NCBI RefSeq assembly: GCF_003334255.1
Contig: NZ_QOWU01000226.1
Direction: 5' to 3' (one strand)
Source of the DNA: Escherichia coli
GTDB lineage: Bacteria; Pseudomonadota; Gammaproteobacteria; Enterobacterales; Enterobacteriaceae
Length of the DNA: 526 nt
Part shown: piece by piece, positions 1 through 526 of the stretch
Position numbering within the stretch: the first letter of the stretch is position 1
Layout: each line of letters begins with the position of its first letter
Notes under the pieces: generated by a model
What the model was told of the DNA's origin: nothing
Seen by the model: the letters and a program-made list of their open reading frames with translations, nothing else
Database searches by the model: none
Translations under genes and position numbers: made by a program

Positions 1-526
1 ATGCAACAGAAGGTACTGCGTTAGGGGCAAAGGCAACAGTAACAAATAAAAACAGTGTTGCATTAGGTGCTAATTCTGTAACCACTCGTGATAACGAAGT
101 TTATATTGGCTATAAAACCGGAACCGAAAGCGATAAAACATACGGCACCCGTGTTCTTGGTGGCTTAAGCGATGGTACGCGTAACAGTGATGCGGCAACT
201 GTTGGGCAGTTAAACCGGAAAGTTGGTGGAGTTTATGATGATGTTAAAGCCCGTATAACTGTTGAGTCAGAGAAGCAGAAAAAATACACAGACCAGAAGA
301 CCAGCGAGGTTAACGAAAAAGTTGAAGCCCGCACAACGGTTGGTGTTGATTCCGACGGAAAACTTACCCGTGCAGAAGGTGCGACTAAAACTATCGCCGT
401 CAATGACGGTCTCGTTGCTCTGTCTGGCAGAACAGACCGTATTGATTATGCAGTTGGTGCCATTGATGGCCGTGTCACCCGTAACACGCAATCCATTGAG
501 AAAAACAGCAAGGCGATTGCAGCCAA
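1..526 (+). CDS. Internal fragment (5' and 3' partial) of a trimeric autotransporter adhesin-like fibrous surface protein; reading frame 3 (codons 3-5 ... 522-524)
   Basis: Seen in sequence: frame 3 on the + strand is open for all 174 codons; the other two + frames hit stops early (TAG at 22-24 in frame 1, TAA at 47-49 in frame 2). Translation contains [11 protein letters not shown] (YadA-head-like repeat), [22 protein letters not shown] (neck-like, compare the YadA neck pattern R.L..LAAG...TDAVNVAQL), and VTRNTQSI / IEKNSKAI (asparagine-at-d heptads typical of these stalks). The 174 residues contain no Cys, Trp, Met, His, Pro or Phe and are rich in Thr/Gly/Val/Ala/Asn/Lys, as expected for a repetitive fibre. 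8 of 11 Arg codons are CGT. Family assignment rests on motif recognition only. Confidence 0.8.
12..95 (+). other. Two tandem 14-residue YadA-like head repeats ([14 protein letters not shown] / [14 protein letters not shown])
   Basis: Seen in sequence: residues 4-17 and 18-31 of the frame-3 translation align without gaps (xxALGAxxxVTxxN). The pattern resembles the SVAIG-type 14-residue repeat of left-handed beta-roll head domains in YadA-like adhesins. The DNA copies (12-53 and 54-95) are diverged, so this is a protein-level repeat. Confidence 0.6.
141..215 (+). other. Neck-like connector motif ([25 protein letters not shown])
   Basis: Pattern matches the conserved neck of trimeric autotransporters: a basic residue, hydrophobic residues around a Gly, then T/S-D-A-x-x-V-x-Q-L. 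It sits immediately after the head repeats and before a charged helical-looking segment, which is the canonical order. Confidence 0.65.
231..338 (+). other. Charged Lys/Glu-rich post-neck segment with two YxD motifs (YDD at 234-242, YTD at 285-293); putative first stalk coiled-coil segment
   Basis: Seen in sequence: [36 protein letters not shown] is strongly charged and Gly-poor compared with flanking sequence. YxD motifs are known from coiled-coil stalk segments directly after the neck in YadA/Eib-type adhesins. Helical periodicity was not computed. Confidence 0.4.
441..526 (+). other. Start of heptad coiled-coil stalk with two consecutive asparagine-at-d layers ([16 protein letters not shown]); continues beyond the window
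   Basis: Seen in sequence: hydrophobic residues spaced 3-4 apart (I147, V151, I154, V158, I165, I172) with Asn at the intervening core positions N161 and N168, followed by T/S. The [IVL]xxN[TS]xx[IVL] pattern is characteristic of trimeric autotransporter stalks. The register was assigned by eye. Confidence 0.5.

Follow-up and report, generated by a model that had tools for sequence, protein, structure and literature searches.

The segment at positions 474-518 of the E. coli DNA analysed here very probably encodes the first two of three layers with asparagine at the core position d of a coiled coil (N@d layers), which open a polar run of six layers and hold chloride by their asparagines in the EibC/EibD trimer. 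The DNA, which we call the window, is 526 nucleotides long as a whole. EibC and EibD are immunoglobulin-binding proteins encoded by prophages, and the segment lies in their left-handed coiled coil, the membrane-proximal one.

The coding frame was identified by an ORF scan of all frames. Frame 3 of the plus strand was the sole frame that stayed open through the whole window, with 174 codons. Frames 1 and 2 of the plus strand were stop-filled over the 526 nt and contained nothing but short ORFs. The minus strand was also considered for coding; it offered short ORFs at most, the longest of 74 aa with a TTG start, and was dropped when compared with the frame of a crystallised protein. Coding in the other frames or on the minus strand was rejected because the plus-strand frame is identical to that protein. 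The frame-3 peptide matched the chain of PDB entry 2XQH (EibD 160-418) in 174/174 residues with zero mismatches. The 74-aa antisense ORF lies at window positions 267-491 inside the eib coding region and is most likely spurious.

In frame 3, residue n occupies the window nucleotides 3n to 3n+2 and corresponds to residue n+239 of EibD and n+232 of EibC. By this codon rule the span 474-518 comprises exactly V158 to I172, with V158 encoded at 474-476, N161 at 483-485, I165 at 495-497, N168 at 504-506 and I172 at 516-518. The positions that the earlier note had given for the span and for the two asparagines N161 and N168 were thus exact. These asparagines are N400 and N407 in EibD, which is used for the numbering below, and N393 and N400 in EibC. 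The 3' end of the window reads ...GCAGCCAA and eibD continues with TACCCG. The final window bases AA and the next eibD base T form the codon of N414 (EibC N407), which is the asparagine of the third layer in the heptad IAANTRT.

The window was 100% identical (526/526 nt) to eibC (AF151674.1, 1664-2189) and to eibD (AF151675.1, 1690-2215). Both genes come from prophages of strain ECOR-9, P-EibC and P-EibD, and the phage records show annotated neighbours. By its identity to these characterised prophage genes, the source gene of the window can be assigned to the Eib immunoglobulin-binding family (EibA, C, D, E, F and G), for which non-immune binding of the Fc part of IgG or IgA is reported in reviews. 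Identity of eibA and eibE to the window was 84-94% over part of its length, and YadA-like genes at 84-97% identity were found in 42 of 5,426 complete E. coli genomes. The Eib C-terminal query also matched a partial protein of E. coli that is annotated as 'IS1 family transposase' (E = 1e-10; 44% of the query covered, at 49% identity), which may represent an eib gene that was disrupted by or fused to IS1.

eibC and eibD cannot be told apart by the window, which lies wholly inside a block that is identical in the two genes. This block extends over 1,280 bp (AF151675.1 1690-2969) at 100% identity, and full-length eibD spans AF151675.1 975-2507. The first base of the window (AF151675.1 1690) is also the first base past the last mismatch between eibC and eibD. 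The block covers the last head repeat, the neck, the whole stalk, the anchor and a terminator stem-loop, and reaches into the start of orf-156. On either flank the two sequences diverge, with 3-39 differences per 100 bp in the upstream part of the gene. Such a pattern suggests that the block arose by recombination or gene conversion between the two prophages of one strain.

The protein family was then analysed with full-length EibD. Pfam recognised YadA_head repeats, with one match at 241-264, and the YadA_anchor domain (PF03895) at 453-511 with E = 5e-16, which is beyond the window. Head and anchor were the only families matched by Pfam, and the stalk and neck families were left unmatched. 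When EibD was compared with NCBIfam, no model scored above its curated cut-off; the best was YadA_autotrans, where the 106 bits obtained fall short of the cut-off of 750, which shows that the protein is not YadA itself. Because of these gaps in Pfam and NCBIfam, automated annotation of eib genes stops at 'YadA-like family protein'. The C-terminal part of the EibD monomer model consists of four strands after a helix and matched the anchors of YadA (2LME) and Hia (3EMO/2GR7) in a Foldseek search against the PDB. The anchor domain alone was recovered in this search, and 2XQH and 2XZR were absent because long single helices align poorly. The 2XQH structure is described in a review as three identical intertwined monomers. 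Taken together, the identity to EibC and EibD, the two Pfam domains and the match of the modelled anchor place the protein among the trimeric autotransporter adhesins (type Vc secretion), with head, neck, coiled-coil stalk and YadA-like anchor. The earlier note had named the trimeric autotransporters as the family, and this assignment is confirmed.

All domains found in the window are encoded on the plus strand. Positions 3-83 encode the last turns of the YadA-like head, a left-handed parallel beta-roll (EibD 240-266), which includes the Pfam head match and is identical to 2XQH; a published table gives residues 124-266 for the EibD head (PMC9543794). The neck connector follows at positions 84-212 (EibD ~267-309). 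Its boundaries are approximate and come from the alignment to the YadA neck in 1P9H, to which the EibD sequence LAAGTKDTDAVNVAQL aligns; the neck ends with ...DAATVGQL at about window residue 70. The stalk proper opens with a right-handed coiled coil at positions 216-332 (EibD ~311-349), where the AF2 model has a helix at 311-349 and the period is 3.7. It is interrupted by the saddle, a beta-minidomain at positions 333-398 (EibD ~350-371, maybe to ~378) with model strands at 351-354 and 368-371. The C-terminal boundary of the saddle is uncertain between 372 and 379, as judged from the monomer model and from the boundary of a published, EibG-numbered construct that was mapped to EibD. In the published description of 2XQH, the saddle is a non-helical insertion that joins the right- and left-handed coiled coils.

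Behind the saddle, positions 399-473 encode the first heptads of the left-handed coiled coil, which have a hydrophobic core with L376, L379, T383, I386, V390 and I393 at a and d when the register with V397 at position a is continued towards the N-terminus. The first N@d heptad VTRNTQS (V397-S403) is encoded at 474-494, the second heptad IEKNSKA (I404-A410) at 495-515, and the start of the third, IAAN(TRT), at 516-526, where the Asn414 codon is split by the window end after AA. In the AF2 monomer model, helices were observed at 311-349 and 372-452, the latter being continuous and having a pLDDT of 91-96 over ~389-438. The hydrophobicity period was 3.7 in EibD 309-345 versus 3.5 in 394-445. Two periods within one stalk fit a right-handed coiled coil that is followed by a left-handed one, and the published layout of 2XQH agrees with this order.

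The earlier note had placed the Asn layers at the start of the stalk. This does not hold for EibD. The stalk begins at about window residue 70 (EibD ~309) with the right-handed coil and then the saddle, and the Asn run comes ~90 residues later, after 3-4 hydrophobic layers (L376/L379, I386, V390, I393). N400 is roughly the fourth d layer of the left-handed segment and lies near the membrane anchor, and the closeness of the EibD N@d layers to the anchor has been noted (PMC9543794).

To assign the heptad register, EibD residues 397-439 were scanned in all seven registers. The register with V397 at position a was the only one of the seven that had I, L, V or M at 7/7 a positions, and it places I393 at the preceding d. 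In this register, the heptads VTRNTQS (a V397, d N400), IEKNSKA (a I404, d N407) and IAANTRT (a I411, d N414) are followed by LQQHSAR (a L418, d H421), LDSQQRQ (a L425, d Q428), INENHKE (a I432, d N435) and MKRAAAQ (a M439, d A442). Six successive d layers are therefore polar (N-N-N-H-Q-N; N400, N407, N414, H421, Q428 and N435), and every a position is aliphatic. The heptad pattern continued unbroken to M439 and lies in the one model helix that extends to 452, in line with the coiled coil that the earlier note had expected downstream. The earlier count of two layers in a row needs a correction: the two layers are indeed consecutive, but there are three N@d layers (N400, N407 and N414), after which d is occupied by H, Q and N. 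The count was two because the window end cuts the N414 codon.

By sequence, V397, I404 and I411 form one strong hydrophobic stripe with a period of seven residues, and such a stripe can formally be a or d. If the stripe were at d, then T401, S408 and T415 would form the second core position and the asparagines would be at g, in a flanking or exposed position. We consider this alternative register extremely improbable on several grounds. When 53 distinct relatives were analysed, the stripe itself was 96% ILVMF. The column three residues behind it was 58% N/Q/H, 22% ILVMF (80% for the two classes together) and 2% charged, as would suit a core position. The column four residues behind it, which would have to be the core in the alternative register, was 24% charged and 10% hydrophobic, and the remaining positions (b, c, f and g with V397 at a) were 42-47% charged. 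Further, the Asn and Gln columns were found to swap to Leu among the relatives, N414 in 31, Q428 in 44 and N435 in 46 of them, and swaps to Met were also found. An exchange of Asn or Gln for Leu or Met points to a buried position, since nothing else behaves in this way. The spacing of four residues from I386 to V390 and from I393 to V397 is a d-to-a spacing, which also speaks against the alternative register.

An independent phase marker is provided by the fusion protein in PDB 2XZR, GCN4-EibD(391-438)-GCN4, which contains the last 23 residues of the window peptide. The EibD insert starts at G391, and the C-terminal junction reads ...NENHKE-MKQIEDKIEEI.... GCN4-pII has Ile at every a and d. 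From this Ile pattern and the 2XZR sequence it follows that both GCN4 adaptors are in phase with V397 at a and N400 at d over the unbroken insert of 48 residues, which again contradicts a stripe at d. Lastly, the published EibD structures are described as having N@d layers with chloride in two papers (PMC9543794, PMC6839023). We conclude from register, substitution pattern and adaptor phase that N400 and N407 are to be regarded as buried core residues at heptad position d. The earlier note had put N161 and N168 at d in consecutive heptads and had named a solvent-exposed position as the outcome that would speak against it; the register found here supports the core assignment.

With the asparagines at d, we asked how often such a pattern arises by chance. 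Both heptads match [I/V]xxN[T/S]xx, the N@d consensus in its strict form. The window peptide and full EibD were each shuffled 200,000 times with their composition preserved. The strict double motif [IV]xxN[ST]xx[IV]xxN[ST]xx was obtained in 0.04% of the window-peptide shuffles and in 0.07% of the full-EibD shuffles, and the pattern is therefore unlikely to arise by chance. The loose form [ILVM]xxNxxx[ILVM]xxNxxx was obtained in 1.7% and 5.1%, respectively, which would leave some room for a structurally meaningless pattern that reflects a protein rich in Asn and Thr. However, in addition to the rarity of the strict form, the third repeat is present, the register runs over 7 heptads, the residues are conserved down to relatives of ~35-50% identity and the segment is inside a crystallised coiled coil. 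A merely compositional origin has next to no probability on this evidence.

Conservation of the two layers was analysed in the aligned relatives, which include Pasteurellaceae proteins at 35-50% identity. Asn was present in 90 of 105 relatives in the N400 column, and T or S in 85 of 105 in the T401 column; for N407, 59 of 87 had Asn and 22 of 87 had Gln. At least two consecutive N@d heptads were observed in 57 of the 120 relatives retrieved, and at least three in 13 of the 120. The earlier note had called the doublet distinctive, which cannot be maintained with these counts and with UspA1 of Moraxella catarrhalis having the same feature. A left-handed coil and anchor with the same N@d columns was seen in proteins of Salmonella Poona, Klebsiella pneumoniae, Haemophilus, Aggregatibacter and Pasteurella. 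Judged by sequence, this module of left-handed coil and anchor extends well beyond the Eib prophages of E. coli.

The conservation also bears on the idea that the asparagines serve mainly in binding IgG Fc at the surface of the Eib stalk and not in the core or in holding an ion. The IgG site of EibD has reportedly been mapped to the region of the saddle and to where the left-handed coil begins, which would favour such a role. Likewise, a review has IgA and IgG bound by two different regions of the EibD stalk. Yet the same asparagines are kept in the Pasteurellaceae relatives that carry no immunoglobulin-binding annotation. In addition, residues at d make no direct contact to a ligand because they are buried in the trimer, and their contribution to Fc binding could be indirect only, via local flexibility or cavities. 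A main role in Fc binding is thus very improbable, and the reading of N400 and N407 as core layers that hold an ion is preferred.

For the ion itself, the literature on EibD provides the evidence. The legend to Fig. 9c in PMC9543794 states for 2XZR that the N@d layers coordinate chloride, and PMC6839023 counts 2XQH as one of the adhesin structures in which Asn side chains of N@d layers coordinate Cl. The general expectation of the earlier note, that such layers coordinate anions, is thereby met for EibD itself. The 2XQH chain ends at L418 and its single heptad segment holds N400, N407 and N414. Since these are the only N@d layers in that segment, we infer that they are the chloride layers meant in the literature. 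Chloride at N400 and N407 individually is accordingly probable, as derived from second-hand citations.

The following arrangement is proposed. Each layer of the trimer would have three asparagines that aim their side chains at the helical axis and hold chloride by their amide nitrogens. A beta-branched residue, the Ile or Val at position a of the heptad concerned, would close the site. The parallel trimer with inward-pointing asparagines is supported indirectly, by the GCN4-pII trimer adaptors that are in phase in 2XZR and by the statements in PMC9543794 and PMC6839023. A halide site of this form, [I/V]xxNxxx with three Asn amides and a beta-branched residue at a, is described in PMC12933892. 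Simulations are also reported in which chloride binding was unfavourable in two of the three trimeric coiled coils tested (PMC12933892); EibD lies outside the systems treated in this simulation study of chloride binding (2026). For UspA1, one layer is reported to be only half occupied at >200 mM chloride (PMC6839023). The occupancy of such layers by chloride in vivo is uncertain.

What the polar cores might do for the cell is a subject of speculation. A review that names SadA, EibD and UspA1 presents the idea, which it words as speculation, that a polar core reduces the propensity to fold and thereby keeps the passenger soluble and competent for transport (PMC3297439). In EibC and EibD, the polar layers might accordingly reduce folding and aggregation and keep the passenger competent for export, both in the periplasm and in the course of autotransport. 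A further role may be to help set the parallel, in-register trimer. Another conceivable role of the unbroken run of six polar layers directly over the anchor, with its three successive probable chloride sites, is that of a hinge sensitive to ions or pH, which would tune the stiffness of the stalk or the presentation of the immunoglobulin-binding surface nearby. Such a hinge would respond to the chloride and proton conditions in the gut, with His421 as the pH sensor. We regard the hinge as quite improbable.

The discovery value of the segment is little, since 2XQH and 2XZR already show the motif and later papers illustrate chloride binding by N@d layers with these structures. The N@d chloride motif is known from crystal structures of the same protein and is an ordinary feature that is common in trimeric autotransporters. 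The value lies in calibration: from 526 bases alone, the family, the register and the motif had been called correctly. The limits of a reading from 526 bases were also evident, as the third layer was cut off and the second, left-handed segment was mistaken for the start of the stalk.

Among the known systems, EibD and EibC (2XQH, 2XZR) are identical to the window at the nucleotide and residue level, with zero differences. YadA of Yersinia has the same lollipop architecture, and its head repeats, neck and anchor align with EibD, but EibD differs by the saddle and by an additional N-terminal domain. UspA1 of Moraxella catarrhalis (299-452; 2QIH) is described as having a left-handed stalk with the consecutive chloride-binding residues N375 and N382 (PMC6839023). 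In the same source, His and Gln at d of UspA1 coordinate water, and one fragment has eight N@d layers (PMC6839023). UspA1 is a different protein with different ligands, and it lacks a right-handed segment and a saddle before the polar-core run. The N@d motif itself, [I/V]xxNTxx, was defined with SadA of Salmonella (2WPQ/2WPR/2WPS; Hartmann et al. 2009). The sequence similarity of SadA to EibD is weak (2WPR, E = 0.69), and in EibD the run adjoins the membrane anchor and continues with His and Gln layers. In its core, SadA is alike: a parallel left-handed trimer in which a is Ile or Val, d is Asn and e is Thr or Ser, and in which three Asn amides hold an anion.
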